Origin: Nitrospirota bacterium
Lineage (GTDB): Bacteria > Nitrospirota > UBA9217
Assembly: GCA_035498715.1 (NCBI GenBank)
Contig: DATJZV010000090.1
Location: 3,173 to 67,172, forward strand
Direction: 5' to 3'
Length of the DNA stretch: 64,000 nucleotides
A program made the position numbers and the translations under genes. This document shows, piece by piece, positions 11,460 through 38,069 of the stretch (the first letter of the stretch is position 1; each line of letters opens with the position of its first letter). A model generated the notes under the pieces. That model saw nothing but the letters and a program-made list of their open reading frames with translations. It made no database searches and had not been told where the DNA came from.

Positions 11460-12173
11460 CTAAAAGTTGCCGAACTCTCCCGATAATCTGAAGCGATCAC
11501 CCCCTTTAAACGGTATTCCTATCTTGAGCAGATCCCCGATTTCCATCGTTCCCGCTTCGATAATCAGCGGGAGAAACCTCTGGAACAACTGGGCCGTGGT
11601 AAAAGCATCCATGAGCGCGTTATGCGCGCCGTTGACCGGGATGCCGAAACATTTTACGATATCATAAAGTCGGTAACCCATAAGCGGTGTGGTAAAGCAG
11701 TCGCGGCATTTCTGCCGTGCCCGAAGCCATTCGTACATGCTGAAAGTGTCGAGCGCGGAAGCCTTGATTTCCTGTCCATAAATCCTCTTCATCTCGCGGT
11801 TGATGAAGCCGAGGTCGATCGATATGAAATGACCGACAAGAACATCATTCCCGCAAAAATTGAGGAACTCTTTGAGGACCTCGTCAATAGCCGGTTTCTC
11901 GACGACTTCCGAAGGCATGATCTCGTGGATAACCACGCTCTGTGCCGAGAGCCGCGTTTTCGGGCTTGCGAGTTGGTAGAACGTTTCGCCCAGGTCGATC
12001 TTTCCGCCGTGCATGCGCACTGCGCCGACGGATATGATAGAATCTTTTTTTTCGTCGAGGCCGGTGAGTTCCGTGTCCAACACGACGTATGGGACATCCG
12101 TTATCGACGTCTTCGGGTCGATTCCGGGCGGCAGTTTGCGGATTCTCCTGAGCAGTCCGAACATCATCCTCAC
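11460..12173 (-). CDS. DEDDh 3'-5' exonuclease (DNA polymerase III epsilon-like domain protein)
   Basis: 237 aa. ExoI is VVLDTELTGL, ExoII is LVGHFISIDLGFI, and ExoIII is GAHNALMDA. It overlaps the upstream gene by 4 nt (ATGA). Confidence 0.85.
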   Translation of the reverse strand: MRMMFGLLRRIRKLPPGIDPKTSITDVPYVVLDTELTGLDEKKDSIISVGAVRMHGGKIDLGETFYQLASPKTRLSAQSVVIHEIMPSEVVEKPAIDEVLKEFLNFCGNDVLVGHFISIDLGFINREMKRIYGQEIKASALDTFSMYEWLRARQKCRDCFTTPLMGYRLYDIVKCFGIPVNGAHNALMDAFTTAQLFQRFLPLIIEAGTMEIGDLLKIGIPFKGGDRFRLSGEFGNF

Positions 12174-14107
12174 CAGATCAGCGATTTGTACCGCTCAATG
12201 ATCAAATCCTGGACCTTCGAAACCAGCTGAAACGCTTCCTTGATCGACCGCTTCTCGAGATGGCTCAACCGGTTCGGGTTGATAAAGTTGTCTGGCGTCT
12301 GGCCTGAGCTGATCTGCGCGTACTGGTGATGGATCCGCAGGAGCGTAATGAACTCGAAGGCCTGCTCGAAGTCATCTCCGTATTCCGTCACGATCGTATT
12401 TTTGTCGCGTAGCGTCTCTATCCGCTCGAGGGTCGAGGTCTCGCGGATCCCCTTCTCCAGCGCGAAAAGGCGCATGATATCTACGAGCGGCGCGATACCC
12501 TTGACCTTGAGGTTGAGTTCGTCCTTGTGCTCCCCGCTTTTTTCGACCACGAAGGACTTGAAAAAACCGATTGGCGGCGTGTTCCTGATCGCCATGTTCG
12601 CGAGGTAACCGAGAAACACCTTCTCGCCCTTGACGATCTCAAGCAGATGGTCTCGCAGCATGTCCGCGAGCCCGGAATCACCGCACATGGGCCTGAAATC
12701 GAAGAAAGTCACGGAGTTCATGACCGCGTCCGCGGTCGGCGTATTCACCCAGGAGGAGAAGTATTTCTTCCACGCCTTGAGCGGCTGGCACCACGTAGGG
12801 TTGCTCGCCATGTAATTTGCAGGGCATATCGGGAACCCGCACCGGATGAGGTCGTCCCGCACGTACTCGGCGAATATCTGAAAGTATTTTTTCGCCGCGT
12901 CTGCCTCCGCGTCCGTAGCCGGATCGGCATAGATAAGGGCGTTATCCTGGTCCGTCTTAAAGGTCTGCTCCTTGCGGCCTTCGCTTCCGAACACGATCCA
13001 GCAGTATGGCACCGGCGGCCGGCCGAACTTCCGCTCGGCGAATTCCATGATCTTCCGCACCAGCCGATCATTTACCTCGGTGATGACCTTGGTGATGTTG
13101 CTTGCTTTGGCTCCCTCCTTGAGGAGGAGCCCGACAATTCCGTTGATCTTTTTCGAGACGGGGACCAGCCCCTCGATCGTCTGCTGGCTTTCGATGTCCT
13201 TGGTGAGCGAAAGCGGCGACGTGCCCTGTAGCATCATGAGATCGTGGTTCGTGATAACGCCCGTAAGCTTGCCGTCCTTGATCACGAGGACATGGTGAAT
13301 GTTGTATTTGAGCATCCTGAGCACAGCTTCAAAGCAGTAGTCGCGGGCATCTACCCGTATGAGAGACGTGGTCATGATGTCCTTGACCGATTCCTGCACG
13401 TCCCTCCCCTTCGCGACCACTTTTTCACGCAAGTCCCGGTCCGTTACAATACCCGCCGGAAGGTTGTTCCTATTCATGATGATGAGCGAGCTGATCCGGT
13501 TCTCGGACATGATCTGCGCCGCCTCGCGAATCGTCGTCTCCTCCTGGACGGAGACGACCTCTTTGATGGCCATATCCTCCACGCGCGTCGTGAACAGGAG
13601 GCGGTCGCTCCCCCCGTAGAACATGCTCTTGTCCTGCATCTCGCGGTAGGTCCGGTCGATGTACTTGGTGATGTGCGACTTCAGGAAGTATTCGGTGAAA
13701 GAAAGGTTCGAGTCGAGGAGCTTAAGAAGCATCTCCTTCCCGAGGAGATAGCAGAGCGTGTCATCGACAGCCGTGATGTTCGACCGCACGCGGTCTTTGC
13801 CTACGATCGACAGGAAACCGAAGGTATCGCCTTCGCCGCGGTAGTCAATCACCACCTCGCCGCCGTCTTCGGATACCATCGAGACCTTCACCCCGCCCTT
13901 TTTGATGATCCTAAGGGCATCACTCGGGGGACCGTCCTGTTCCAGGATGACCATGTCCTTAGGATAGAATTCCATGGACAGATTCCTGGCAATGGCCTGC
14001 AAGTCATCATCTTCGAGGAACTGGAACGGGGGGACCTTTTTCAAAAAGGCCACTACGTCCTCGAGAATCATATTGCTTGCGCTGCCGGGCTTTATCGCAG
14101 ACATCAT
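12170..14107 (-). CDS. cNMP-binding + CBS pair + DUF294 nucleotidyltransferase + DUF294_C signal-transduction protein
   Basis: 645 aa. The cNMP-binding beta-barrel reads FYPKDMVILEQDGPPSDALRIIKKGGVKV...GEGDTFG. Two CBS repeats follow, then the NTase motif WIVFGSEGRKEQTFKTDQDNALIY and a helical C-terminal domain. Confidence 0.85.
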   Translation of the reverse strand: MMSAIKPGSASNMILEDVVAFLKKVPPFQFLEDDDLQAIARNLSMEFYPKDMVILEQDGPPSDALRIIKKGGVKVSMVSEDGGEVVIDYRGEGDTFGFLSIVGKDRVRSNITAVDDTLCYLLGKEMLLKLLDSNLSFTEYFLKSHITKYIDRTYREMQDKSMFYGGSDRLLFTTRVEDMAIKEVVSVQEETTIREAAQIMSENRISSLIIMNRNNLPAGIVTDRDLREKVVAKGRDVQESVKDIMTTSLIRVDARDYCFEAVLRMLKYNIHHVLVIKDGKLTGVITNHDLMMLQGTSPLSLTKDIESQQTIEGLVPVSKKINGIVGLLLKEGAKASNITKVITEVNDRLVRKIMEFAERKFGRPPVPYCWIVFGSEGRKEQTFKTDQDNALIYADPATDAEADAAKKYFQIFAEYVRDDLIRCGFPICPANYMASNPTWCQPLKAWKKYFSSWVNTPTADAVMNSVTFFDFRPMCGDSGLADMLRDHLLEIVKGEKVFLGYLANMAIRNTPPIGFFKSFVVEKSGEHKDELNLKVKGIAPLVDIMRLFALEKGIRETSTLERIETLRDKNTIVTEYGDDFEQAFEFITLLRIHHQYAQISSGQTPDNFINPNRLSHLEKRSIKEAFQLVSKVQDLIIERYKSLIW

Positions 14108-14571: not shown

Positions 14572-15771
14572 TCACGCGTACTGACCGGCCGCGTATCCTG
14601 ATGCCCAGGCCCAATGGAGGTTATATCCACCGAGTTCACCGGTCACATCAATAACTTCGCCGGTGAAATAGAGCCCCGACACTTTCCTCGCTTCCATGGT
14701 CTTTGACGAGAGCTCATCCGTATCCACACCACCTGCGGTCACCTCTGCGGTCCCGTACCCCCCGGTCCCTTTGGGAATGATCTCCCATGCATGAAGCGAT
14801 TTTGCGATCTGATTCAGTTCTCTGTCTGAAGTTTGATTGAGCGGATTTGTAGTCATCAGGGTATCGCACCAAATCTGCGCGAAGCGCCTCGGGAAATATC
14901 CGGCAAGCAGGTTGCGCATCTCCATTTTGCTTTGACGCTGGGAAAAGAACACGCCAAGGATGTCTGTTTCAGGGAGGAGGTCGATCTTAAGCGATGCTCC
15001 CGGCTTCCAGGAGAGCGATGTCTGGAGAGCAGCAGGTCCGCTCAGTCCCAAGTGCGTGAACAGAATGCTCCCACGAAACCTTTTCAAGCCGCTAGATACG
15101 GTCGCGTCAAGAGAAATACCTGCAAGTTTTCGAAAGACCGCCTGGTCCCGATTAGAGAAGATGAAGGGAACAAGTGCAGGCATTAGCTCCGTGACCTTGA
15201 GCCCGAACTGGCGAGCCATGTCATAGCCGAAGCCACTCGCACCAATGTTGGGGTACGATAGCCCCCCAGTGGCGATGACCAGAGAATCCGAATGAAAGGC
15301 CCCCTGGTTCGTCGTAACGGTGAATTTTTTTGCCTTCCGAACATCTGCCACTCTGCATTTGAGTCGAATCTCCACGCCCGCCTTCTCGCACTCCTTTTCT
15401 AGCATGCTGATGATATCGCGGGAGCTCCTGACGCAGAATATCTGGCCTGCCTCTTTTTCATAATATGCGATACGGTATTTCTCAACAAGATCAAGAATAG
15501 CACGGGGTGTGAAGCAGGCGAGGGCCGATTTGCAGAAATGGGGGTTTCGGGAAATGTAGTGGCCTGCCGTTACGTTCAGGTTCGTAAAATTACTTCGTCC
15601 GCCGCCGGACATGCGGATCTTCGAGCCGGTCCGCTCCCCGTGGTCCAAGACGAGCACCGAGCGGCCGCGCTTTCCGCATTCAACGGCGCACAAGAGACCT
15701 GACGCGCCTGCGCCGACGATTATGACGTCTTTTTTAGTATCGATTGTCATGCCGGGCCTTATCTCATTCAA
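14572..15771 (-). CDS. HI0933/YhiN-family FAD-dependent oxidoreductase (BaiN-like flavoprotein)
   Basis: 399 aa. The N-terminal dinucleotide-binding site reads VIIVGAGASGLLCAVECGKRGRSVLVLD...GGGRSNFTN. The C-terminal region reads FTGEVIDVTGELGGYNLHWAWASG. Confidence 0.85.
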   Translation of the reverse strand: MNEIRPGMTIDTKKDVIIVGAGASGLLCAVECGKRGRSVLVLDHGERTGSKIRMSGGGRSNFTNLNVTAGHYISRNPHFCKSALACFTPRAILDLVEKYRIAYYEKEAGQIFCVRSSRDIISMLEKECEKAGVEIRLKCRVADVRKAKKFTVTTNQGAFHSDSLVIATGGLSYPNIGASGFGYDMARQFGLKVTELMPALVPFIFSNRDQAVFRKLAGISLDATVSSGLKRFRGSILFTHLGLSGPAALQTSLSWKPGASLKIDLLPETDILGVFFSQRQSKMEMRNLLAGYFPRRFAQIWCDTLMTTNPLNQTSDRELNQIAKSLHAWEIIPKGTGGYGTAEVTAGGVDTDELSSKTMEARKVSGLYFTGEVIDVTGELGGYNLHWAWASGYAAGQYA

Positions 15772-15880: not shown

Positions 15881-16111
15881 TCATGCCTGCTTTTGTGTAT
15901 GGCAGATCAGACATTGTTCCTTCGGCGGATGATTCTGCTTCAGGGGAGCCTGTTTTCCCGGAGCGTGGCACTCCGCGCAGGCGGCATTCATCGTCACATT
16001 CTTGTGCAGAGCATCAGAGGGGATCAACGGCGCTTTCTTGCTCGAAGAGAGAACGATGAGGACAAGAAGCACGGCCAGGACGAAGGCGATCAACGTCAAT
16101 GTATTTTTCAT
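15881..16111 (-). CDS. Small membrane-anchored di-haem c-type cytochrome
   Basis: ORF 15881..16132. The ATG at 16111 is preferred because GAGGAG lies 8 nt upstream. It has one N-terminal TM helix and two CxxCH sites (CAECH, CLICH). Confidence 0.6.
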   Translation of the reverse strand: MKNTLTLIAFVLAVLLVLIVLSSSKKAPLIPSDALHKNVTMNAACAECHAPGKQAPLKQNHPPKEQCLICHTQKQA

Positions 16112-16435
16112 ACCAATTTCTCCTCGCGTCAAAATTTAAGATTTAAAAATCAATGTTCATATTTTAATGATCAGGGCGTATTTCGCATATTGAACCATTT
16201 GACAATTATTTTCTGCTCTTCATGCATAATCCCTTAGAGCCCATAAAGATATCATCGATCTTTTCATCGATGACCGCGATTGGGCGTTCGTTGGCAGACG
16301 AATGGCCAGTCTTCTTTTTGCGTAGGCTGATTCGAAAACGCAGCCCTGTATGGTTACCCACTATTTGGGCGGATAGATAGGGCCGGATTTTCAGAAACTG
16401 CACTTAGGATATCACTGATTCTTTTTAAAGACAAG

Positions 16436-16569: not shown

Positions 16570-17574
16570 CTAAAACTGCTGGCTGCCAATTTCTTGGTAA
16601 ATAAAGTGGGAAATCTCCGCGATGGTATTATCCAGATACTCAGGTACAGTACCTGAGGTCATCACACACAAAAGATAGGGATGATCGGGGAAATAAACGA
16701 TTCCGCAATCATGCAATTGTTTTATCTCATTGATCTTCCGCAAACCAAACTTGTGCGCGACTGTGATATTGGGAGGCACTCCAGCAACCAAACCTTTTTT
16801 GTAATCAGTTTTGACCAGATATTCTAAGGCCTTTTCGGACATTTCTCTACTTAGATATGAAGCATTATAAAGAATGCGGAAAAAAGATGAGTATAATCCT
16901 ACTGAGAGCATATAACCACTTTGGTCGTTTAGATAATAAGGGTCTGGAATACCCAAGTCATCATACGTTTTTCTGAGGTCTTTATTACTAATTGCTCCTT
17001 CAAGAAGTATAGAGGAAACATTATCAGAATAATCAATCGTTCTTTTCAGTAAGTCTTCAACTGTATAGGACCTGCCGAACAATAATTTATCAGCTACATC
17101 AGTATTTTGGTACGATTTAAGGTCAGGATTGTTATAGGCGACTTTCTGAGTCAGTAATTGGGGATACGTTTCTGCCTTTTTCAAGACAGAGATCATAAGC
17201 GGCACTTTCAGTAAGCTTGCCGGATAGAATTGCGAGTCTTTCCCTATGTCGAAAGTAAGTCCATCGTTTAGTTCACGAAAATATACCGAGACCTCGTCGC
17301 CCCATCTCCGGCTTAGGTTTTCTCTTATAAACTTTTCAAGATCATCTCTCATCGGTTTGAGCTCGGGATCCGACAGCACATGTTGGGCTTGCTCGCATTC
17401 CAACAAAGGATTTGTATAAGTCCAACCTCCCTGTCGTATCTCGATAAGTTGATGTTTTGATTTTTCCGGGATAAACCCTCTAAGCATAAACCCGACGGAT
17501 AACCCGGCAATAAGGGCCAGCGCCGGTATTAGAAATTTACGGAATGGACTTTTCGACTCAAGATTATTATTCAT
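16570..17574 (-). CDS. Membrane-anchored class A beta-lactamase-fold serine hydrolase, paralog 2 (AT-rich gene)
   Basis: ORF 16570..17685. The start at MNNNLESK (17574) is preferred because it sits just before the TM helix FLIPALALIAGLSVGFML. The motifs are SxxK = ASLLK and SDN = YSDNVS, with KFG in place of KTG. The start is uncertain. Confidence 0.65.
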   Translation of the reverse strand: MNNNLESKSPFRKFLIPALALIAGLSVGFMLRGFIPEKSKHQLIEIRQGGWTYTNPLLECEQAQHVLSDPELKPMRDDLEKFIRENLSRRWGDEVSVYFRELNDGLTFDIGKDSQFYPASLLKVPLMISVLKKAETYPQLLTQKVAYNNPDLKSYQNTDVADKLLFGRSYTVEDLLKRTIDYSDNVSSILLEGAISNKDLRKTYDDLGIPDPYYLNDQSGYMLSVGLYSSFFRILYNASYLSREMSEKALEYLVKTDYKKGLVAGVPPNITVAHKFGLRKINEIKQLHDCGIVYFPDHPYLLCVMTSGTVPEYLDNTIAEISHFIYQEIGSQQF

Positions 17575-17778
17575 AACATTATAAAGACTGCCGATCAACT
17601 TTCTGCATGCCATTAGGAGGAGTTTGGCCGGCCGGGAAATAAAACTTATGCTGTATTTCAAACATGTCCCAAACCATAATGTCACACTCGTTCATCCAGG
17701 CAAGGCTGATCTTCTCCGATTCTCCACTTTTTGAAAATCGCTTCTCGGTGCATTGGATAACGTTCTTCTTTCCGGCAT

Positions 17779-18834
17779 CTACCCTGGTAACCGTGTTTGC
17801 CGGTCTATTTCTTCATAAATGAGCATAGTGACATCACGAATTACGTTCGTTAACTTCCCAGAATCTTCCCCGCGGGCCATGACCCCCATGAGATACGGGC
17901 GGCCTGGGTAGTAAATGATCCCGAACTCATGGAGCTGTTTCATTTCCTTTTCGATGCCGCGGTCCGCATCGGCCTGCATCGACCTCTCTCCGGACTTGAT
18001 CGCACAGTCTACATTCGGTGGGATGCCTGCGACGATCCCGTCCCTGAAGGCAGACCGGGAAAGATAGCGGAGGGCCTTCTCGGACATCTCATTGCTCAAA
18101 TAGGAAGAGTTGTAAAGCACGCGAAAGAACGATGCATAGGCGCTGAACGTCACAGCATCGTCCTTCTTCGCCGGGTCATAGTTGGCATAGATGTCCTTAA
18201 AGACCCGGTCAAGGTAGCCAGGCGGGAGATTGGCCAATAGCAGTGCATGCGCATCGGTATCGTCGTATGCGATCATCCTGAGGATTAGATCGTCAACCGT
18301 ATAGGATCTGCCTTTCTCGAGAGGCCTAGCTGCTTTTGTGCTTTGCAGACTGCTTTCTTCCGTGCTGCCGGCAAAGGGTATTTTGCGGTTCAGAACGCGG
18401 GGGTATGACTCTGCCCATTTGAAGTAGGCGACCATGAGAGGCAGTTTCAAAAGGCTTTCGGGCGAGAACGGTTCCTGCTCCCGGATGCCGAACCGGTGCC
18501 CGCTTTTTAGATCCTGGAAAAAAACGGATACCGTTGATACCTCGCCCGTTTTCATTTTGCTCTGAATAAGCGCATCTACCTTATAGCGGAAAGGCTTCAG
18601 TTCGCTTTGTGTACGCGCTCTATCGGGCATCATGTTTCCGCGCGGGGGTCGTATGAACCTGAATGCGCCTCCCGTGTCAGCCGAACGTTCTTCGCTACTG
18701 TCCTCGTATATGCTGCCTAGCATCCCCGTTCCTCTGCCGATGAACGCCCCGAAGGAAAATGCCGCAAGCAGGAGGACCAGCAGAAAAGACCTTTTGATAG
18801 TTATACTTTTCTTATCGGTGTCTTTCTCAGACAT
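17779..18834 (-). CDS. Membrane-anchored class A beta-lactamase-fold protein, paralog 1 (degenerate SDN loop)
   Basis: ORF 17779..18870. The start at MSEKDTDKK (18834) has GGAGAGGG upstream. The TM helix is FLLVLLLAAFSFGAFI. The motifs are SxxK = ESLLK, YDDTDA in place of YSDN, and KSG present. Confidence 0.65.
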   Translation of the reverse strand: MSEKDTDKKSITIKRSFLLVLLLAAFSFGAFIGRGTGMLGSIYEDSSEERSADTGGAFRFIRPPRGNMMPDRARTQSELKPFRYKVDALIQSKMKTGEVSTVSVFFQDLKSGHRFGIREQEPFSPESLLKLPLMVAYFKWAESYPRVLNRKIPFAGSTEESSLQSTKAARPLEKGRSYTVDDLILRMIAYDDTDAHALLLANLPPGYLDRVFKDIYANYDPAKKDDAVTFSAYASFFRVLYNSSYLSNEMSEKALRYLSRSAFRDGIVAGIPPNVDCAIKSGERSMQADADRGIEKEMKQLHEFGIIYYPGRPYLMGVMARGEDSGKLTNVIRDVTMLIYEEIDRQTRLPG

Positions 18835-18873
18835 CGTCGTCCCTCTCCAGTGCAATAGACCGTGCTTCAACTT

Positions 18874-21459
18874 CTAGAACGTATACACTCCCGCTAAAAA
18901 ATTCTTCGCGTACCGATCAATGGCGGCATCATCGTGCAGCACGGCATCCAGCTGCCGGGCATAGGAGATCAGCCTCCCCGTCTTGTCGAGTACCGTCTCC
19001 ATCTCTTCCTGTTTGAGGCCCGCGAGGCGGGCAATGAGAAGGTCTCCCTTAATCTTGATGTTGAAGCCATATTCTCGTAAAATCTTCGCGATGAGTTCCA
19101 CCCTTCTTGAACGCTTTGCCATGTCCGTTGCGCCGCCCACGAAACGGAAGTAGATGTGGTTGTTCTTCGCATTCTCGCCGCAATAGCAGTCGATCATGTT
19201 GAAATGATACCCAAACCTGATGCTCAGGTTCACATATTCGCGGGATATAACCGCCACATTATATCCGGCGGGGTGCCCGCTGTCGGAGACGATGTCCGGC
19301 ATCCGCATCATGCTCGAAAGAAAATCATGGGCTTTCAAAGCGACCGGCTCGGAGTGCCAGGCGCCAGGATGAATCATGCCCCTGATGATAGCCCGGAACG
19401 GCACCGACGTAACCTGCTCAAACGTTGCCCGTCCGCCAACCCCGCTATTCAGGCCGCCTCCCATGTCCATGACCAGGATCCCCGCGGGCACGGGAAGTTC
19501 CAGCGGCACGAGCGCACCTTGTTTCCTGAACTTTGCGTTCCCCTCCCGCGCGCTGTCCACGAGCTCGGCAACCGATTTTTCATGCATGAACCGCAAGATA
19601 TCGTGCAGCGTCCTGCATCCTTCGGGCGTAAACTCGTCCATCAGCGGGTCAACAAGGTTGAGGAGGGAGATGTACCGCAGGATATACCGCTTCCTTCGAT
19701 ATTCATAAACATCCTCCATCCTCGCGGTCTCGTCACCGGCCTGTGAGATAATATCCCTGACTATCCCTTCATAGACGGCCGATGTGCCGTCGTCTCCGGC
19801 GACCAGGGTGACGTCCTGTCCCGGCTCCAGGATTTCCATGACACCAGCGACATTCACGATTGCCGGGATTTTCAATTCCCTGCAGAGCGCTGCCATATGG
19901 CTAGTCTGCGTTCCAGTTTCGGTAATGATCGCGGAAACGAACGGCATGACCCGGACGTACAGCGATGAATCGTGTTTCGCCACCAGCACGGCTCCCTTCG
20001 GGACATCGCTCAGATCGTCCTTTTTCCGTGTGATAAAGACCTTTCCTGCTCCTGTTCCTTTCTGGATCACACTGCCCCTGTTCCGGATTAAGACCAGATG
20101 CGCCGATTCGGGACCCGGGATCTGGCGCTCCGCGGAAACATCGCTTGAATTCTTGACAGCAATGTTCAACGGGCGCGCTTGGAGAATAAAAATCCTGCCG
20201 TCCTTGTCGATCGCCCATTCGACGTCGCGGGGGCTCCCGAAGTACTTTTCGATCTTCGCCGCCAAAGAGGCGAGTTCCGCTGCCTGCTCAGAAGTCAGAC
20301 ACGGTTTTCCCCGGAGAACATCCGGCGTTGCGACCTCGGTTACGCCTCCCTGGCTCTGGCCGGTGATCATGGACGACTTATTGCCGATCGCCGCGCCAAG
20401 CATTTCATGAGGTTGACCCTTCCTAACCGTATAGAGGTCCGTATCGGTCAGCCCCTCGACCACGGCCTCTCCCAGTCCCCATGCGGCGCTGATGACGAGG
20501 GTATCCCCCTTGCCGTCGGGCGCGGTAGTATACATGACACCGCTCGACACCGCATCCACCATGACCATGCACCCCACGGCCATCTTCAAGCGACCCGGTT
20601 CGTAGCCCATCTGCTGTTGATAGGCCACGGCCTTTTCCGAAAATAGGCTCGCGATCACCTCCCGATATGCCTGTTCAACACGCCCCGTCTCGGGGGGGAC
20701 GTTCAGGATGCTTTGAAACTGTCCTGCGAATGACCGGCCGCTGTCCTCCTCCTCTGCGCTGCTCCGTACGGCGAGAAAACATTCCCCGTTGCGACTCTGG
20801 ATTTTCTGTATCGCTTCTTGCATTGCCCCGTTGAGGGAAGAAGGAATGGTCCCGTGAATAATGAGTTCCTGCAGTTCCCGGAGCCCCGCGTCAGACGGAT
20901 GGGGATCCTCTGCGATCCGTGCCACCTGACCGCCGAGCCCGTTGGAGCTTATGAATTCGTCAAAAGCCGCGGTCGTGATGACGAAGGCGTCAGGAACGCG
21001 CAGGTTCAGGCGGTTCTTGACCTCCGAGAGATGGGCGTTCTTGCCACCGACTTCCCGCAGCGTGCCCCAGGGAATGTCCTCAAAGAACAGGACCGGCTTC
21101 TGCGGCACCGACGGCGCGCCGGAGATCATCTGCTGGATCAGAGAGTCAATTCGTCCGAACACATCGTGGAGAGGCAAATACCGGTTCCTCGTGAGCGTGT
21201 CGAAATTCCGCATGGAATACTCGAGATCTTTCCGGAGGCGGGAATAGGCCTTCTTGATATAATTTACATCGAACAGGTAGTCCCCACCCAGTTTCTCTCC
21301 CATGTCCGTAATCGTTTCGAGCGCCCGGTTATTGCTATCGAGTACTTTCTTAAACCGGTCGAAAACAGCCTTGAATTCCTCAGGGTCCGCGGGATATTTC
21401 CTGAAGGACGCATTGGCTACCGACGCGAGGAGTGATCTTAATAAACCACCGCTTTTCAT
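18874..21459 (-). CDS. PEP-utiliser-like phosphotransferase: PPDK_N ATP-grasp + phosphohistidine swivel domain + unassigned C-terminal domain
   Basis: ORF 18874..21546, with the start at M30 (21459) preferred. The ATP-grasp region reads REVGGKNAHLSEV...VRSSAEEEDSGRSFAGQFQSILNV. The swivel His context reads ETGTQTSHMAALCRELKIPAIVNV. No PEP/pyruvate TIM-barrel domain follows. Confidence 0.7.
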   Translation of the reverse strand: MKSGGLLRSLLASVANASFRKYPADPEEFKAVFDRFKKVLDSNNRALETITDMGEKLGGDYLFDVNYIKKAYSRLRKDLEYSMRNFDTLTRNRYLPLHDVFGRIDSLIQQMISGAPSVPQKPVLFFEDIPWGTLREVGGKNAHLSEVKNRLNLRVPDAFVITTAAFDEFISSNGLGGQVARIAEDPHPSDAGLRELQELIIHGTIPSSLNGAMQEAIQKIQSRNGECFLAVRSSAEEEDSGRSFAGQFQSILNVPPETGRVEQAYREVIASLFSEKAVAYQQQMGYEPGRLKMAVGCMVMVDAVSSGVMYTTAPDGKGDTLVISAAWGLGEAVVEGLTDTDLYTVRKGQPHEMLGAAIGNKSSMITGQSQGGVTEVATPDVLRGKPCLTSEQAAELASLAAKIEKYFGSPRDVEWAIDKDGRIFILQARPLNIAVKNSSDVSAERQIPGPESAHLVLIRNRGSVIQKGTGAGKVFITRKKDDLSDVPKGAVLVAKHDSSLYVRVMPFVSAIITETGTQTSHMAALCRELKIPAIVNVAGVMEILEPGQDVTLVAGDDGTSAVYEGIVRDIISQAGDETARMEDVYEYRRKRYILRYISLLNLVDPLMDEFTPEGCRTLHDILRFMHEKSVAELVDSAREGNAKFRKQGALVPLELPVPAGILVMDMGGGLNSGVGGRATFEQVTSVPFRAIIRGMIHPGAWHSEPVALKAHDFLSSMMRMPDIVSDSGHPAGYNVAVISREYVNLSIRFGYHFNMIDCYCGENAKNNHIYFRFVGGATDMAKRSRRVELIAKILREYGFNIKIKGDLLIARLAGLKQEEMETVLDKTGRLISYARQLDAVLHDDAAIDRYAKNFLAGVYTF

Positions 21460-21571
21460 GTTCTGCTCCCACCCATCATTGCAATCGAGACACACTGTGC
21501 CGCTGAGGCATTCTGTATACATCTGTACCGTACCGCTCAGCACCAATGTATCGCCGTGCGTATGCTGGGTA

Positions 21572-21940
21572 CTAAGGCCTGTTCAATGCACGCCGTATCG
21601 ATTCCTTGAGCTCCTTGATCTTTACGGGCTTGGGGAAGAAGTCGTGCACGTCTCCCCGCAGCGCTTCGATGGCCGCATCGAGGTTGGCGAAGGCCGTGAT
21701 CATGATGACCTTGGTCTCGGGATACAGCTTTTTCACCGTTCTAAGGACTTCCATCCCGTCGATGCCCTTCATCTTGTAGTCCGTAACAACGACGTGAAAT
21801 TTATCCTCTTTCAGCCGTGCCAGTGCCGGCTCGGCATTTAAAAATGTCTCGACCTGATAGCCCTCCTGCTCGAGCGAAAGCTTTGCCATGTCGCCCACGA
21901 TCTTTTCGTCGTCAATGACCATGATCTTGTGACTATTCAT
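21572..21940 (-). CDS. Stand-alone response-regulator receiver (CheY-like)
   Basis: 122 aa. The acidic pocket is DDE, the phospho-acceptor context is VVTDYKMKGIDG, and KP is conserved (FFPKPVK). It overlaps the upstream kinase gene by 4 nt. Confidence 0.9.
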   Translation of the reverse strand: MNSHKIMVIDDEKIVGDMAKLSLEQEGYQVETFLNAEPALARLKEDKFHVVVTDYKMKGIDGMEVLRTVKKLYPETKVIMITAFANLDAAIEALRGDVHDFFPKPVKIKELKESIRRALNRP

Positions 21941-23346
21941 CGATTTTTCTCCTCTTTTTTATACAGTGGCAGTTCTAAGGTGAAGGTCGTCCCGACTCCC
22001 ACCTTGCTATCCACTCTGATATCCCCTCTATGGTTCTTGATGATTCCGTAACTGACCGAGAGCCCGAGGCCGGTTCCCGCGTCGCCCTTGGTGCTGAAAA
22101 AGGGATCGAAGATATGCGGCAGGAACTCAGGCGGGATGCCTTTTCCAGTGTCCGCCACACCGATCTCCACAGAATTCCCGCTCTTTCCCAGCCTCGATGA
22201 AATGACGAGCCTGCCACCCGAGGACATGGCCTGGACCGCGTTGGTGATGAGGTTCACCAGGACCTGCTGTATTTGATGCTCATCGACATATACATGCGGC
22301 AGTGCATGGTCGAGATGAAGCGTCGTTTCGATATTCGACACATCGATCATGTTCTGCACAAGCGTAAGCGTCTTCTGTATCACGGAGTTGATGTCCGCCT
22401 CGTTCGGGTTCGAATCCTTTGGCTTGGAAAAATCGAGGAGGTTCTTAACGATCTTTCGTATCCGCTCCGTCTCCTCCTCCACCTTGCTCATGAGCTCGAC
22501 CCGGTCCCTACCGCTGAGCTTGTCGTATAGTTCCGCATAGGTCTGGGCGATCATGGAAATGTTATTCAGGGGATTCGTGAGCTCATGCGCCACCCCCGCC
22601 GTGAGAATACCCATGGAAGCAAGTTTCTTGGACTGGATGAGCTCCTCTTCGCGGTGGCCAAGTTCCTCGGACATGGAGTTGATGGCCGCAATGACGGAGC
22701 CAAGCTCATCATTGGATTGGAACACTTCTATCTTTTGGAAATTGCCTCCGGAGATGGATTTCGCCAGTTTCTCGATTTCCCGCAACGACCGGAGAATCTT
22801 CTGAGAAATAAAGTGTCCCAAGAAAAGGGCGGAAAACAGAATGGCCCAGAAGGAAAACATCAGTATCCGCTTGGAGCTCAGGATAATATCATTCACCCGC
22901 CTTCTTTCAAGGTGCGTGATGGAATCGGAAAATTCCTTCAGCTTTTTGCCCTCGGCCCTGAGCCGCAACTCGAGATGCTGGTCCATGGAGCTGCCTGTCC
23001 GCGCTTCTTCGATGACATCCGAATAAGCTTTGAGGTACGAGTCAAGCTTCTTGAGATCGGTCTCACCGATGGCCCTGATAATGTCATCCCGCACCTCTCC
23101 GATTGTCCTGACGGTATAATCTATTTTTCCCCGTATCTCGGCAAGCGCTTTCTTATCCTTGTAGAGAAAATAGTTCTTTTCCGAAAGCCTCATTTCGAGA
23201 AAGGACGCATTCAGATCATCGGCGATTTCCACGAATCTGAGCTTAGTAAGGACAAGATTCATATTCTGAAAGGCAAAAAAACCGATCAGAATAATGAATG
23301 CGCCGTACATGACGTTGGAGAGGATGAGCTTTTTTTCGATCTTCAT
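21937..23346 (-). CDS. Sensor histidine kinase (helical periplasmic sensor, HAMP, HisKA, HATPase_c)
   Basis: 469 aa. The H-box is AGVAHELTNPLN. N, G1 and G2 boxes are present (NLITNAVQA, DTGKGI, GTGLGLS). The sensor domain shares the motif R-x-SEKNYFLY with the kinase at 38070..39644. Confidence 0.9.
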   Translation of the reverse strand: MKIEKKLILSNVMYGAFIILIGFFAFQNMNLVLTKLRFVEIADDLNASFLEMRLSEKNYFLYKDKKALAEIRGKIDYTVRTIGEVRDDIIRAIGETDLKKLDSYLKAYSDVIEEARTGSSMDQHLELRLRAEGKKLKEFSDSITHLERRRVNDIILSSKRILMFSFWAILFSALFLGHFISQKILRSLREIEKLAKSISGGNFQKIEVFQSNDELGSVIAAINSMSEELGHREEELIQSKKLASMGILTAGVAHELTNPLNNISMIAQTYAELYDKLSGRDRVELMSKVEEETERIRKIVKNLLDFSKPKDSNPNEADINSVIQKTLTLVQNMIDVSNIETTLHLDHALPHVYVDEHQIQQVLVNLITNAVQAMSSGGRLVISSRLGKSGNSVEIGVADTGKGIPPEFLPHIFDPFFSTKGDAGTGLGLSVSYGIIKNHRGDIRVDSKVGVGTTFTLELPLYKKEEKNR

Positions 23347-23553: not shown

Positions 23554-24795
23554 TCACTCCGGATAGGCTATGCCCCTCGGAACTTCTGCCTGTTCCTTGC
23601 GGACAGGCCAGTACCAGAGCATCCCGTCCACGAGCATCAGAAGTGCCGCGGCAATGAGCAACATATTAAACGATGTGAGCAGACCGAACCCGAAATAGCT
23701 CAAAATACCGATGCCGATGCCGAGGAAAGAAATGCCTGTCCGGATGAATGCAAGCCCGGTCCTCGCCCGCGCATAGATGGTGCGATAGCAGGCAGCAATC
23801 GTCCGCTGGGCCGCCAGAACGTTCCGCTCCCGAGCGAACATGGTGCGCGTTTTGCTTGACGGCGTCGGATTAAGATAGGTACTGTGATCGGCAAGATAAT
23901 CTCCCATTCGTGCAAGCATCGTTCCCTGCGTTGCCTTCCTTGCTCCCGTATTCTCGATAAAATGGTAATCCTCGAGGAACTGGATCGTAGCTGCCGTGAC
24001 TTCGACCAGCGTCTGGTTCCCGGGAGGTGTGAGCCGAGATTTCCGGATGCTCAAATACTGGGGAAGGCCGTAACATGCGATGATGATACCAACAATGAGT
24101 ACCGAAAAATAGAGATAGGGGTTGCTGCTCGTGTTCCTCGACTGCAGCAAGGCGTTCGAGAGCGCTATTGTACCCATCCCCCACCGGATGAAAGAAAGAC
24201 CGGTCCTTGCCTTCGCAAGATCGGTCCGGTAGCAGGCCATTCTCGTGCGCCAGTGCGCCATCGTGTTTCTCCAGAACGCAAGTCCGGTCCGCTCCGTGCC
24301 GATCAAGAGCCCAACCTTTGCATGGAGAAAATCCTGGATGTACCATTGAATGTCCGAATCAAGAGAGACGCGGAATTCATACCGGTCTGCCTTGATGTGT
24401 TTTTTCACGTCCTCCCGCATGGCCTCGCTTTCCGGGTTTCTCGCCGCAATGACTACGGTGCCCGACTTGTCCTTCATGACCGGCATCCACTGGTACGTCG
24501 AGAGCGAGTCTGCGTTCAGGTTGATCAGAAGCTCCGGTGGGATCGGCAGGCGTTCGTCGTATTCGATCGCGCGACAATTATAGTACTTCGCAAGCGCCGC
24601 AAGCATGTCCTGCTTGGTTATTTTGTACTCGCTCAGAAGGACCTTTTCGATATCGATGCCCCTTGCTTGGGCCCTGCTTGCCGCTACTTCGAGATCGGCA
24701 GTGCCCAGAATCCTCCGTTCTACCAGAAGGGAGAACTCCAAGCCAGCCCCGACTGCATTATCGGCGAAATCGTCGTTCATCAGCTCATTTTTCAT
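23554..24795 (-). CDS. T2SSE_N (GspE/MshE N-terminal-like) domain fused to two DUF202-like membrane modules
   Basis: ORF 23554..24825 with a TTG start. ATG 24795 or 24780 is plausible, so the start is uncertain. The N-terminal 150 aa follow the GspE_N pattern. Two modules follow, each built from RTxxAxx heptads plus two TM helices. Confidence 0.65.
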   Translation of the reverse strand: MKNELMNDDFADNAVGAGLEFSLLVERRILGTADLEVAASRAQARGIDIEKVLLSEYKITKQDMLAALAKYYNCRAIEYDERLPIPPELLINLNADSLSTYQWMPVMKDKSGTVVIAARNPESEAMREDVKKHIKADRYEFRVSLDSDIQWYIQDFLHAKVGLLIGTERTGLAFWRNTMAHWRTRMACYRTDLAKARTGLSFIRWGMGTIALSNALLQSRNTSSNPYLYFSVLIVGIIIACYGLPQYLSIRKSRLTPPGNQTLVEVTAATIQFLEDYHFIENTGARKATQGTMLARMGDYLADHSTYLNPTPSSKTRTMFARERNVLAAQRTIAACYRTIYARARTGLAFIRTGISFLGIGIGILSYFGFGLLTSFNMLLIAAALLMLVDGMLWYWPVRKEQAEVPRGIAYPE

Positions 24796-26437
24796 GGTTA
24801 TTAAAAAATACCGTTCCCCATTCAAAATTTGGTCTTCCGTAATCAGGAATAGTTATCTCCATGTCCCCGTAGCAGTACGGGTACTCCTTCCTCATGCGTT
24901 CGGCGGGAAGCATCCAGCGGTATCCGTCCACGATCAGTGCAAGCCCACTTACAATCAGCAAGGCGTTGAAGATCGTCCAGCCAGGCGAGGCGATACCGAA
25001 ATAAGCCATCAATCCCGCGCCAACAGACGTAATGCTCATGCCTGTCCTGATGTACGCCATGCCCGTCCGCGACACCGCCATGACCGTTCGGAGCCGTGCC
25101 ATGACGACGCGACGGTCGGCAAGCACCGTCCGTTCCAGAGCGTGGCCTGTCGTGGCCCAGATGCCCGGCATCTGGTCCGCGGTAACCGGCGGACCCGGCC
25201 TGTCCTTTCCTGGTCCCGATCGTTTGTGGCCAAGCGGAAATACCATGTCCCAGATCGTTTCCTTGTTAAGCCCCGCCAGCACGGACCGCAACCCTTCGAT
25301 TCCGGACTTGCGCCCGCCGAAATACCAGTAAAAGCCCTCGGCGGACATGAGAATGCCCGCGGCAATCAGTGTGACATCGAAGATCGACCACGCCGACCAC
25401 CTGCTCGCTTCAAACTGCCTCATCAAACCTATGCCGAGTCCGGTAAAGGCAATGCCGGTCCTGGTAAAGGAGAGCCCCGTCCGCGCTCGGGCGAGCTTTG
25501 TCCGGTGGCCGGCAAGCGACGTCCGCTCCTCTGCCATGTCAGTCCGGTCGCTGGCCAGGAACCTTCGCCGCATTACGGGCGAGAGATTCTCCCAATCGGC
25601 TCTGTGCTCTCCCGCGCCCTTTATTTCTTCGGTCCGGGTGATGACAGGACGGCCGTCCCTCACATCTCCCTGAAGGACACAGGTTCCCCAGGTCGGCAAC
25701 GTGCAGCTAGTGTCAAGCGGTTTGCCTGCGATCTTCCGAGCGGGCAAATACCATTTTATCCCGTCATAAACCATGATGACACCGACGGTCAATAGCGGCG
25801 CTTCAAGGACCAGGTAAAAACCGGCCCCCAGGACACGCAAAAACAGAAGGGCGATGACGATAAAGGAAACGCCGGTCCGGATGAAGGCGAGACCCGTCCG
25901 CCCTTTCGCGAAGAGCGTACGGTAATGCGCATAGGTCGATCGCTGGTAGGCGAGGAACGTCCTCACGCGGGCGAGCGGCGTCCGGCCCCCGGAGATGCGG
26001 AAATTGCGGTTCACGTCGAAATTATGTTCAATGATGCGGATGAGGTCGGCCGGAAGCGACACGCGGAAATCGATATGCTCAACGCCTAGCGTTTTTTTAA
26101 TGTCTTCGATTACACGCTCGTCGTCGGGGCGGAAGGCAATGACCTCAGCCTGTTTCTCGCGCACGGAGAGCGGAAACCACAAGGCACTCTTCTGGTGCTC
26201 CAAGTCGAGCCGCAGGACCAGAAAGTAGGACGCGGCCACGCTCTCATCGAATTCAACGAACGGATAGCCGAAATATTCCGAAAGGCAGAAGAGGACCTCG
26301 TGTTTCGGGATCCCTTGCCGGATCATCAGCTCCTCGACCGCCGTCCCCGTGGCTATCGATTCCCGCTCCATCGAGTCCAGCTCTACCTCGGAGAGGACCC
26401 CCAGACGGAGCAGTCTATTGAATTTATCTCTGATCAT
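24785..26437 (-). CDS. T2SSE_N (GspE/MshE N-terminal-like) domain fused to three DUF202-like membrane modules
   Basis: 550 aa. The N-terminal region reads LRLGVLSEVELDSMERESIATGTAVEELMIRQGIPKHEVLFCLSEYFGYPFVEF. Three modules lie at about residues 152-235, 296-375 and 434-512. Confidence 0.7.
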   Translation of the reverse strand: MIRDKFNRLLRLGVLSEVELDSMERESIATGTAVEELMIRQGIPKHEVLFCLSEYFGYPFVEFDESVAASYFLVLRLDLEHQKSALWFPLSVREKQAEVIAFRPDDERVIEDIKKTLGVEHIDFRVSLPADLIRIIEHNFDVNRNFRISGGRTPLARVRTFLAYQRSTYAHYRTLFAKGRTGLAFIRTGVSFIVIALLFLRVLGAGFYLVLEAPLLTVGVIMVYDGIKWYLPARKIAGKPLDTSCTLPTWGTCVLQGDVRDGRPVITRTEEIKGAGEHRADWENLSPVMRRRFLASDRTDMAEERTSLAGHRTKLARARTGLSFTRTGIAFTGLGIGLMRQFEASRWSAWSIFDVTLIAAGILMSAEGFYWYFGGRKSGIEGLRSVLAGLNKETIWDMVFPLGHKRSGPGKDRPGPPVTADQMPGIWATTGHALERTVLADRRVVMARLRTVMAVSRTGMAYIRTGMSITSVGAGLMAYFGIASPGWTIFNALLIVSGLALIVDGYRWMLPAERMRKEYPYCYGDMEITIPDYGRPNFEWGTVFFNNHEK

Positions 26438-27020: not shown

Positions 27021-27443
27021 TTATAATCCGACAACATACACCGGGCACGGCGCACGGTCGATGACCTTCTCTACGATGTGATCACCAAAGAGCCGGCTAA
27101 TGATACTTTTTTTCTTTTTCGACCCCATGATGATAAGATCGCATTTTTCTTCTGCGGCGACTTCCACGATCCTGTCCGGCACGTCACCGGCCTCCAACCG
27201 CGTTTTTACCATTGCTCCCTCGGCCTCAGCAACCTCATTGATAACGGAAACTGCCTTGGCCGCCCCGTCGTCCAGGACATCGTGAAGGTTCTTGATGCCC
27301 GTCAGGTTGAGTTCGCCATCAAAAGGCCGGACAACTTTCACGACCGTGATCCAGGTCTTTTCGTCCTTGGCGAGTTTGATCCCCTGTTCCAGGACCTCTT
27401 TGGACCCGTTCAACGCGATAAGAACTTTTCTATAACCCTTCAT
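27021..27443 (-). CDS. Universal stress protein (single Usp domain)
   Basis: 140 aa. It starts KVLIALNGS... and ends DLIIMGSKKKKSIISRLFGDHIVEKVIDRAPCPVYVV. Confidence 0.85.
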   Translation of the reverse strand: MKGYRKVLIALNGSKEVLEQGIKLAKDEKTWITVVKVVRPFDGELNLTGIKNLHDVLDDGAAKAVSVINEVAEAEGAMVKTRLEAGDVPDRIVEVAAEEKCDLIIMGSKKKKSIISRLFGDHIVEKVIDRAPCPVYVVGL

Positions 27444-27545
27444 AATATATCACGCTCCCTTGCTTGCTATAGTGTTTACTTTGAATTCTGTTTTCATCAA
27501 CCTGACATCTCCACGTCATCTGCATTCCATTCGTTCTCAGGTCAT

Positions 27546-28409
27546 TTACCTCGCAATCAGTATTGGACAGGAGGCATATGCAATAATACGCTCCGCCGTG
27601 CTCCCGATGATAGCCTTGTTTACGCCCCTCCATCCGTGGGTTCCCATGACGATCAGATCATGTTTCAGCGTGTCTGCGATCTCCACGATCTTGTCACCGG
27701 CATGACCCTCCTGCACGACCGCCTTGATCTCTACTCCCAGCCCTGCGGCGTGCTTCTTTGCTCCCTCGACGATCTTCTCCGCCTCTCGAAAGAGGCTCTT
27801 CTTAATGGTCTCTGTCTTGAAGAAGTCCATCATCTCTTCGTAGCGGGGTATAACGTAAAGGACCGCTACCTCTGCTCCGTCAATTTTCGACAGTTCGCTG
27901 GCCCGCGTCAGCGCCTTTTTGCTGGCCTCGGAGCCGTCGAAGGGGACCAGCAAGGAATGATAACTTCCGCTGCACTTCGAACACGGTTTCTTGACCACAA
28001 GCACATCGCAGGGTGAGTTCAGGATGACCTGCGACGTTACGCTACCCATAAGCAGCCGCTTCAGTCCCTTTCGTCCATAGGTGCCGAGAGCAATGAGGTC
28101 GGCTTTCTTCCCTTGTGCAATGTCCACGATCACGTCGGGCGGCTCGCCTTCGCATATAATAGACTCGATGCTCCCGTTCAGTCCGTAATCATGATGGAGA
28201 CTCTTCTTCGCGTCCATGCAGACCTTCGTCCCTATTTCGAACCGCTTCTCCATCTGCGACGGCAGAATAGTGAACTCCTCTTGGTCAAAATAGACCGCAT
28301 GGACCAGGAAGAGATGCCCCCCGTGTTTTTTTATCCAGAGCGAAGTTTCTTGCAGTGCCGCCCTGCTCGACAATGACTCATCGTATCCGACAACAATAGT
28401 GCTGTACAT
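27546..28409 (-). CDS. Tandem universal stress protein (two Usp domains)
   Basis: 287 aa with two repeats. Each ends in a G-x2-G-x9-G(S/T) ATP-binding-like motif (LGTYGRKGLKRLLMGSVTSQV and MGTHGWRGVNKAIIGSTAERI). Confidence 0.85.
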   Translation of the reverse strand: MYSTIVVGYDESLSSRAALQETSLWIKKHGGHLFLVHAVYFDQEEFTILPSQMEKRFEIGTKVCMDAKKSLHHDYGLNGSIESIICEGEPPDVIVDIAQGKKADLIALGTYGRKGLKRLLMGSVTSQVILNSPCDVLVVKKPCSKCSGSYHSLLVPFDGSEASKKALTRASELSKIDGAEVAVLYVIPRYEEMMDFFKTETIKKSLFREAEKIVEGAKKHAAGLGVEIKAVVQEGHAGDKIVEIADTLKHDLIVMGTHGWRGVNKAIIGSTAERIIAYASCPILIAR

Positions 28410-29212
28410 TAATGAGAACCTCCGCCTTTCCTAAACACCAAGCCGACACCGAAACCCGCGCCGAGCGCGATACCGATCGAGAGAATACCGTAGAACGCCG
28501 CGTTGTTCTTTGCCATGGTCGCAAGCGTTTTGACGAGGCCGGCCTGTTCAACATTTACCTTCGCTTCGGCCTGCTCAACGACTTTTCCATTCTTCACGGC
28601 ATAGACCGACACTAGGTAATCTCCCGGTGCTGCCTGGTAGGGCCAGTCGGTCAGAATGTAATACTCCTGCCTACCGTCGGCCTTCGCCGTTGTCGATATC
28701 TTCCCGAAGGAGGATACATATACGTTGGACGCTTCCTTATACTTAACGAACTCATTGAACCACTTGGCCTTCTCCTCCTCATTTGCGGCCGGCGTTACCG
28801 TGACATGTTTTTCGAGCGATGGATATCCGATCACATACTTTTCCATCTCTTCCGTGCTGAGCATCTCATCGAGTTTCTTCGTGCTATAGACTGCGTAGAA
28901 ATTCGGGGTATGTTCGAATTTGAGCTGCCCCACATTCATCCACAAAAGGCCGCCGACCTTCCCCTTCTGTTTTAGGACCTGATGCTCTTCGGGAGCGGTT
29001 ATCTTGATGACCAGATCAACGTTGGGATCCGACTCCCCACGAACGCTCACCGTGCTGCCGTGATAGAAGAAGTCGATGGTGATATGGTCATGGTTCGCCT
29101 TGGCCGTCAGCATGGCGGAAGCATTGCCAGTGAAGACAAGGATGAAAATGAGGGCCAACGCGGCTATCATCGCGCTTCCCCGATCGGCAATTCGCAACCC
29201 GATTTTTTTCAT
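28409..29212 (-). CDS. TIGR02186 / Alph_Pro_TM-type membrane protein (function unknown)
   Basis: 267 aa with an N-terminal signal or anchor, a large beta-rich periplasmic part and a C-terminal TM helix (FYGILSIGIALGAGFGVGLVF). It shares start/stop overlaps with both neighbouring genes. The family call is from memory of the usual TauE pairing. Confidence 0.5.
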   Translation of the reverse strand: MKKIGLRIADRGSAMIAALALIFILVFTGNASAMLTAKANHDHITIDFFYHGSTVSVRGESDPNVDLVIKITAPEEHQVLKQKGKVGGLLWMNVGQLKFEHTPNFYAVYSTKKLDEMLSTEEMEKYVIGYPSLEKHVTVTPAANEEEKAKWFNEFVKYKEASNVYVSSFGKISTTAKADGRQEYYILTDWPYQAAPGDYLVSVYAVKNGKVVEQAEAKVNVEQAGLVKTLATMAKNNAAFYGILSIGIALGAGFGVGLVFRKGGGSH

Positions 29213-30823: not shown

Positions 30824-30839
30824 AGCAACAGGGGTGCCA
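30824..30839 (-). promoter_or_regulatory. Sigma-54 promoter, perfect consensus TGGCAC-N5-TTGCT
   Basis: The minus strand reads atattGGCACccctgTTGCTatat, with GG-N10-GC spacing exact. It lies about 40 nt upstream of ATG 30783, with AAGGAGG in between. Confidence 0.8.
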
Positions 30840-37928: not shown

Positions 37929-38069
37929 GCGTATCTTTCCTTTAATCGGACTATCTAGGATCGAAAATAATCGAGACCAGAGAGGCGCATAGTGCGCGAA
38001 GGGTTTAATCTCCGGACCGTATTCCATTGCGCTCTTCGCGACTTCACGTTAAATTACTGATTCAGGCTC

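Follow-up and report, generated by a model that had tools for sequence, protein, structure and literature searches.

The 64,000-nucleotide (nt) stretch of DNA analyzed here (the window; positions 3,173 to 67,172 of contig DATJZV010000090.1 in the Nitrospirota bacterium assembly GCA_035498715.1) encodes on its minus strand an 861-amino-acid (aa) dikinase-type phosphotransferase (18874..21459), in which an ATP-grasp domain and a phosphohistidine swivel domain are followed by a C-terminal domain that is new, uncharacterized, and without a known relative in Pfam or in the PDB. Together with a membrane sensor histidine kinase (HK) and a stand-alone receiver (REC), both encoded upstream, this enzyme forms a genuine and strongly conserved unit, and all three belong to a larger, nine-gene, membrane-associated cluster that is conserved in sulfate-reducer-type bacteria. 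On balance, we favor the explanation that the protein is an ATP dikinase that is gated by the receiver, has a new type of acceptor domain, and works with a membrane module handling anions. The novelty lies in the association of a dikinase with a receiver, with a new putative acceptor domain, and with membrane protein genes as a conserved context.

Domain composition of the phosphotransferase

The best start of the phosphotransferase gene is the ATG at 21459, which is preceded by GGGAG and gives the protein of 861 aa; its homologues align from residue 1. A conserved helical region of about 120 aa at the N-terminus is followed by the ATP-grasp domain PPDK_N (PF01326, E 7.9e-79; residues ~136-439, nt 20143..21054) and by the swivel, or PEP-utilizers mobile, domain (PF00391, E 1.7e-16; residues 487-556 of 861, nt 19792..20001). 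The swivel carries the phosphohistidine motif GTQTSHMAALCRELKIPAI, whose His521 (codon 19897-19899) is invariant in 55 diverse members of the family. Pfam detects no PEP-utilizers_C domain and nothing known beyond PPDK_N and the swivel, and thus the description of this protein in the initial annotation of the window, as an enzyme of about 860 aa with an ATP-grasp domain and a swivel but no TIM barrel, proved correct.

The succession of an ATP-grasp PPDK_N domain and a central swivel with the catalytic His retained is that of the phosphoenolpyruvate (PEP) synthase PpsA (pyruvate, water dikinase, EC 2.7.9.2), and the alignment with the PpsA structure 2ols extends over residues 123-568 (E 5e-59). 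However, where PpsA has its C-terminal PEP/pyruvate TIM barrel (PF02896), the window enzyme has an unrelated domain of about 300 aa, and it differs from PpsA also in the extra helical N-terminal region and in the stand-alone receiver partner. The scores of the enzyme against the NCBIfam models of PEP synthase are 312.9 vs. a cut-off of 598 (PRK06464) and 295.9 vs. 739.75 (TIGR01418).

A different comparison had been drawn in the initial annotation, which ascribed to the enzyme the domain logic of rifampin phosphotransferase (Rph) and YvkC. Rph (EC 2.7.9.6), YvkC, PigC, and RedH have ATP-grasp domains homologous to that of the window enzyme and likewise combine them with a swivel His and, as is putatively the case here, with an acceptor other than pyruvate. 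In the published structures of Rph the ATP-grasp domain is followed by the substrate-binding domain and then by the swivel His domain at the C-terminus. The substrate domain of Rph-type enzymes is central and their swivel C-terminal, whereas the window enzyme shares the central swivel of PpsA and ends with the domain of about 300 aa. Rph structures in the PDB align with the phosphotransferase over residues 121-432 only, and the NCBIfam scores amount to 198.1 bits vs. a cut-off of 999 for the Rph model NF041857 and to 217 vs. 1300 for the PigC model. Domain order and model scores thus rule out membership in the Rph/YvkC group and contradict the earlier comparison. As judged from its sequence, the phosphotransferase is a protein of PpsA-type dikinase architecture that belongs neither with PpsA nor with Rph.

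The C-terminal domain (residues 558-861, nt 18877..19788) has no Pfam match at E values up to 1. PDB sequences yielded no relative when searched with the domain sequence alone, nor did a profile built from 17 sequences match any of them at E values up to 10. The open reading frame (ORF) 48487..51168 of the window encodes, as initially annotated, a complete and genuine three-domain PpdK, and it provided the barrel for a direct comparison: BLASTP of the C-terminal domain against this barrel gave nothing, and hhalign gave a probability of 0.14%. The domain had low confidence in a first AlphaFold run, with the full-length protein and 15 sequences. A run with the domain only and an alignment of 129 sequences yielded a model with a predicted local distance difference test (pLDDT) of 80.2 and a predicted template modeling score (pTM) of 0.76. 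In this model, a helical N-terminal part is followed by antiparallel strands and sheets packed on long helices, and beta and alpha elements do not alternate as they do in a TIM barrel. A Foldseek search of the PDB with the model returned nothing significant (best E 0.012, TM-score at most 0.22), and PEP-utilizing enzymes were absent among the 50 best matches listed. These results agree with the earlier description of the C-terminal 300 aa as a region of unassigned fold. The possibility raised along with that description, namely, that the region is a divergent PEP/pyruvate TIM barrel and the protein an ordinary PEP synthase, is ruled out by Pfam, hhalign, the fold prediction, and Foldseek.

Among 55 family members of 27-50% identity, residues D620, H752, F773, G775, G776, R786, G828, and D838 of the domain are invariant, and C615, H619, H626, E627, and R783 are nearly so. 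The stretch FRFxGG..D..RRxRR is predicted to begin where a strand ends, to pass through a loop rich in glycine, and to enter the first part of a helix, and it is plausible that in such a setting it forms a phosphate or anion site. Searched for exhaustively, the domain turned up in at least 1,159 clusters (50% identity), nearly all of them consisting of proteins about 860 aa long that share this architecture and have the domain at the C-terminus. The proteins closest to the phosphotransferase come from metagenome-assembled genomes of Nitrospirota and Thermodesulfovibrionales, and the family extends to cultured Desulfovibrionales; Fundidesulfovibrio terrae and Humidesulfovibrio idahonensis are cultured bacteria that have the cluster. 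Source databases call the homologues 'pyruvate, water dikinase', and the members from cultured Desulfovibrionales 'PEP/pyruvate-binding domain-containing protein'; the former name is a mislabel for proteins of this family. Our literature search found no paper on the family. The DVU0145-0150 cluster of D. vulgaris does not contain PEP-synthase-like genes; its genes encode lipoproteins and membrane proteins. Some family members, including P0220, P0224, and P0234, are longer (about 1,050 aa), with a C-terminal extension of about 200 residues that Pfam does not match, and P0268 has a lectin/LamG-like C-terminal extension.

Partnership with the histidine kinase and the receiver

The HK gene (21937..23346, minus strand) encodes two hydrophobic segments that flank a loop of about 120 aa, followed by HAMP, HisKA, and HATPase_c domains, with an H-box that reads AHELTNP. 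The receiver (21572..21940, minus strand) is a CheY-like protein with the Response_reg domain only, and its phospho-acceptor residues are canonical (D10/D11, D54, T82, and K104). The two proteins thus have the H-box, the HATPase_c domain, the acceptor residues, and the adjacent genes of a two-component system. Their genes overlap by 4 nt, and the gap between the receiver gene and that of the phosphotransferase is 112 nt.

The conservation of this arrangement was studied with the use of tblastn and the window proteins as queries in 80 species-level loci from GTDB genomes with 8-kb flanks; the denominators given here and below comprise only those loci in which the flanking sequence is sufficient. 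The receiver gene is located directly upstream of the enzyme gene in 73 of 74 loci, and an HK gene lies upstream in 62 of 66. The receiver is also the most conserved product of the whole gene row (72-98% identity, vs. 43-92% for the enzyme across the same species), and its gene still adjoins that of the enzyme in the loci of different gene order (L079-L086). In three members of the family (P0176, P0137, and P0185), a receiver is fused to the C-terminus of the enzyme, which argues that the receiver is functionally tied to it. The initial annotation had proposed a receiver without an output domain that may act directly on the phosphotransferase, and both the domain content and the fusions fit the tie that it assumed.

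Near-universal adjacency, fusions, and exceptional conservation suggest that the receiver is either a regulator or a substrate of the enzyme. Regulation seems the better choice, since a canonical HK is encoded alongside and since the C-terminal domain of the enzyme looks catalytic. The receiver resembles known CheY-like single-domain response regulators in its complete set of acceptor residues, the lack of an output domain, and the presence of a cognate HK and of a likely target encoded next to it, but differs from them in that the putative target is a dikinase-type enzyme. No receiver acting on an enzyme of this type was found described in the literature searched.

Conserved membrane protein genes of the row

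Five co-directional genes had been reported in the initial annotation, namely, those of the HK, the receiver, the phosphotransferase, and two beta-lactamase-fold proteins, bla1 (17779..18834) and bla2 (16570..17574). All five are present on the minus strand at the coordinates given here, and the spacing agrees as well: a 4-nt overlap of the HK and receiver genes, 112 nt (reported as under 115) before the enzyme gene, and 39 nt (reported as under 40) between the phosphotransferase stop and bla1, followed by 204 nt between bla1 and bla2. As a conserved unit, however, only the first three genes stand. Beta-lactamase-fold genes follow the enzyme gene in 4 of 66 loci, and the conservation of the neighborhood, which had been suggested as a check, is found upstream (HK, receiver, and two genes described below) and not in the bla genes downstream.

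Upstream of the HK gene the row continues on the same strand, beyond the five genes first noted. Next to the HK gene are two genes of membrane proteins that join an MshEN (T2SSE_N-like) domain to DUF202 repeats. The first of these genes (24785..26437) encodes an N-terminal MshEN and three repeats and the second (23554..24825) an MshEN and two; the two genes overlap by 41 nt. They are preceded by the genes of a single-domain universal stress protein (Usp; 27021..27443, identified by Pfam scan and synteny), a tandem-domain Usp (27546..28409, with two stretches matching PF00582), an Alph_Pro_TM (TIGR02186) membrane protein (28409..29212; PF09608, E 5e-51), and an anion permease of the TauE/SafE (TSUP) family (29212..30138; PF01925, E 5e-52), the last two overlapping by 1 nt. 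An ORF of 165 aa without a family match (30286..30783) is located directly upstream of the TauE gene.

The second MshEN-DUF202 gene is found upstream of the enzyme gene in 52 of 64 loci, and the first upstream of the HK gene in 50 of 60. Wherever the 8-kb flank is long enough, the row extends further upstream with TauE, Alph_Pro_TM, tandem Usp, and single Usp genes, exactly as in the window (30138..27021), and related loci have a collinear TauE gene whose product shows 60-98% identity. The taxa with the conserved row are Nitrospirota (Thermodesulfovibrionia-type) and Desulfobacterota, and TauE, Alph_Pro_TM, and Usp genes are collinear in both Nitrospirota and Desulfovibrionales. The more remote homologues of Fundidesulfovibrio and its relatives (37-39% identity) are encoded within a row of the order Usp-TauE-Alph_Pro_TM-enzyme-REC, which is often followed by a second paralogue of the enzyme. 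In locus L081, the same set of genes occurs in a different order, and its preservation through rearrangement argues for a functional linkage. A family-less ORF of 184 aa in L086 occupies the same place as the 165-aa ORF of the window.

Permeases of the TauE family are known as exporters of sulfite and sulfonates. The pair of MshEN-DUF202 proteins contains five DUF202 repeats in total, and the VTC channel is a pentamer of DUF202-type units. In eukaryotes, DUF202 constitutes the three-transmembrane domain of the Vtc subunits of polyphosphate synthase (PMC7283521). Our literature search found no paper in which MshEN is joined with DUF202.

The row is probably driven by sigma-54, as suggested by a -24/-12 element with a perfect core, TGGCAC-N5-TTGC (30824..30839, minus strand; a match to the consensus only), located about 40 nt upstream of the 165-aa ORF, the first of the row. 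An equivalent site is present at 5772 of L085, just upstream of its Usp-TauE-Alph_Pro_TM-enzyme-REC row and just downstream of the gene of an HK with a sigma-54 activator; in most other loci the flank is too short for such a comparison. A scan for the sigma-54 pattern with two mismatches allowed gave matches that were overall at chance level, and of these only the perfect-core site of the window and its counterpart in L085 appear worth noting. Scans of the region for generic sigma-70 promoters and terminators did no better than scans of shuffled sequence. The gaps of 583, 207, 112, and 204 nt within the row leave room for internal promoters. The window also encodes a sigma-54-dependent NtrC-type response regulator (38027..36597), and in many loci genes of this kind are found beside the cluster.

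Several loci depart from the common pattern. In L067, L073, L080-L082, L084, and L086, the enzyme has a tandem paralogue, or two, of 29-35% identity, and in one of these paralogues (L084, 11119-13578) the swivel domain is present and PPDK_N is not detectable. The second MshEN-DUF202 gene and the HK gene, which are elsewhere about 30 nt apart, are separated by a family-less ORF of 167 aa in L001 (5530-6033), as in a few closer relatives.

Proposed function and its alternatives

In PpsA and PPDK (pyruvate, phosphate dikinase), the ATP-grasp domain pyrophosphorylates the swivel His, the gamma-phosphate is lost, and the phosphoryl group left on the swivel is delivered to the third domain. By analogy with these two enzymes, the ATP-grasp domain of the window enzyme would transfer pyrophosphate from ATP to His521, the gamma-phosphate would then be released, and the swivel would carry the phosphoryl group that remains to the C-terminal domain. 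There, the acceptor would be bound by a pocket composed of the invariant or nearly invariant Cys, His, Asp, and Arg residues and of the glycine-rich strand-loop-helix element FRFxGG..D..RRxRR. The membrane HK would phosphorylate the stand-alone receiver, which in its phosphorylated form may bind to the enzyme and gate it. The enzyme would be the cytosolic part of a row whose other products are membrane and stress proteins.

If this explanation is right, the likeliest acceptor is a small anionic compound that the membrane module handles, an assignment to which we give slightly less than even chances; that the acceptor or the product is a small anion is a guess prompted by the conserved membrane partners, and the main alternative is a protein partner. 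To our knowledge, dikinases with an ATP-grasp domain and a swivel His are known to serve few acceptors, namely, pyruvate, glucans, rifamycins, flavonoids, and precursors of prodigiosin. Naming the acceptor of the window enzyme would thus add a new reaction to this class and would also give a role to the Alph_Pro_TM and DUF202 proteins and the TauE paralogues.

Several points speak against the proposal of a receiver-gated dikinase with a membrane module. The region is contained in DNA runs of wetland and peat metagenomes, and none of the RNA runs searched contains it. The C-terminal domain could be docking or regulatory rather than catalytic. In the window, 207 nt separate the MshEN-DUF202 genes from the HK gene, and the genes upstream are up to 583 nt apart, so that co-transcription of the entire row remains a proposal. 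The bla1 gene, in turn, starts 39 nt behind the enzyme gene and has orthologues in the same position in five related genomes, which may indicate a tie specific to this clade.

A docking role of the C-terminal domain is part of the first alternative, according to which the enzyme is an ATP-driven phosphodonor in a non-canonical phosphorelay: the swivel His would pass its phosphoryl group to Asp54 of the receiver, which would be the substrate, docked by the C-terminal domain. The adjacency of the two genes in 73 of 74 loci fits such a relay, as does its persistence where no dedicated HK is encoded alongside (L079, L080, L082, and L084-L086). The unusual conservation of the receiver (72-98% identity) and its fusion in some members right after the C-terminal domain are also consistent with it, and the transfer from His~P to Asp is chemically routine, as in histidine phosphotransfer (HPt) domains. 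On the other hand, in the window and in most Nitrospirota loci the receiver gene overlaps or abuts the gene of a canonical HK, which is the usual mark of a cognate pair. Moreover, the invariance of Cys, His, Asp, and Arg residues and the glycine-rich loop make a domain of 300 aa look like a catalytic one rather than a docking surface, and no precedent for the relay was found in the literature searched. We consider this alternative unlikely.

The conserved membrane partners allow also a bolder version of the proposal, in which the enzyme would be the engine of a membrane-coupled phosphoryl-transfer system, and its new-fold acceptor domain would produce a phosphorylated inorganic or organic anion or a phosphate-containing polymer, to be passed on to the TauE and MshEN-DUF202 proteins. 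In our view this is rather improbable. If true, it would mean a new dikinase chemistry under the control of a receiver in bacteria of the sulfate-reducer type.

Beta-lactamase-fold genes downstream of the enzyme gene

According to the initial annotation, the genes may form a regulated module for the modification of xenobiotics or cell-wall fragments such as muropeptides. Spelled out, this would be a two-component-regulated phosphorylation module in which the beta-lactamase-fold proteins are ligand sensors or processing enzymes of the same pathway. What the annotation reported of the proteins themselves is accurate. The likeliest starts of bla1 and bla2 are at 18834 and 17574, respectively; both proteins match PF13354 (E 1.1e-28 and 8.7e-31), have one N-terminal hydrophobic segment each, and retain the SxxK motif of class A enzymes as SLLK. 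When the two were aligned with class A enzymes, the motifs read for their complementary degeneracy proved right (YDDTDA and KSG in bla1, YSDN and KFG in bla2), so that the pair Ser130-Asp-Asn/Lys234-Thr/Ser-Gly is intact in neither, bla1 having D-D-T at the SDN position and bla2 having KFG. The two proteins are 36% identical; they are distant paralogues placed side by side and not a diverged tandem duplicate. The omega-loop region, including the position of Glu166, aligns poorly with class A enzymes, and the scores against the NCBIfam bla_class_A model (cut-off 200 bits) are 40.6 for bla1 and 71 for bla2.

The bla1 family comprises proteins of about 345 aa that are widespread in Nitrospirota. 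In this family, Ser130 is always replaced. At the position of the nucleophilic Ser, P0410 has Asn and P0414 has Thr, but SxxK still has its Lys and the K-x-G motif is intact; this pattern suggests a binding or non-canonical role. Orthologues of bla1 follow the enzyme gene in L004, L005, L006, L075, and L087 (the last found separately from the count of 4 loci in 66), and this position, the short distance behind the enzyme stop, and the degenerate or variant catalytic motifs are what favors the xenobiotic or cell-wall module. Against it, a Pfam scan of 132 genes located just downstream of the enzyme found PF13354 in 5, the commonest gene in that place being that of another HK with a sigma-54 activator. 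In long contigs, one of five bla1 orthologues follows the enzyme gene (L087), one stands alone, and three come, elsewhere in the genome, after a MarR gene that they abut or overlap by 1-4 nt (L088, 6453-8038; L089, 6456-8035; L090, 3456-5041), which suggests a separate, MarR-controlled unit. L089 and L090 share their assembly with L003, where the enzyme cluster lies on a different contig and includes no bla gene.

The bla2 gene is compositionally foreign (GC content 40.6%; 40.9% at third codon positions, vs. 62-73% in all its neighbors), and among the loci read it was seen only in the closest relative, L005. Its third-position GC content, far below that of its neighbors, leads us to read bla2 as a probable recent horizontal insertion, a paralogue resembling the penicillin-binding protein PBP-A, behind a gap of 204 nt. 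Among its best solved relatives is PBP-A Tll2115, matched over the whole catalytic domain with E 6.6e-7. Tll2115 is described as a penicillin-binding protein that is akin to class A enzymes and a poor penicillinase (PMC4331424). Like Tll2115, bla2 retains SxxK and SDN, but KFG takes the place of KTG and the protein is anchored by an N-terminal hydrophobic segment, whereas bla1 and its orthologues lack Ser130 throughout and some of them also the nucleophilic Ser.

Thus, both genes appear to be local additions rather than parts of the enzyme system, bla1 being a member of a Nitrospirota-wide family that seems to adjoin the row downstream by chance in this clade. As the domain order and the model scores of the enzyme are unlike those of Rph or YvkC as well, and as the conserved partners are the TauE, Alph_Pro_TM, Usp, and MshEN-DUF202 proteins, that is, proteins of transport and stress, a xenobiotic or muropeptide module with bla sensors is very improbable and, for the family as a whole, largely refuted by synteny. 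The chances that the enzyme is an ordinary divergent PEP synthase or PPDK paralogue of gluconeogenesis are close to nil: although its best NCBIfam and PDB matches (residues 123-568) are PEP synthases and its homologues bear the name of that enzyme in source databases, the scores (313 vs. 598 and 296 vs. 740) are far below the equivalog cut-offs, PEP-utilizers_C escapes Pfam, profile-profile comparison, and fold search alike, and a complete PpdK is already encoded in the genome.

A known anti-phage defense system was considered too and is ruled out, as PADLOC-DB models gave no match to seven proteins of the row. Downstream of bla2, the minus strand encodes an 83-aa membrane-anchored protein with two CxxCH heme motifs (15881..16132), an HI0933/BaiN-like flavoprotein (14572..15771), and a putative nucleotidyltransferase with cNMP-binding, CBS, and DUF294 domains (12170..14107). 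L005 is syntenic with the window for the genes of the CxxCH protein and the flavoprotein.

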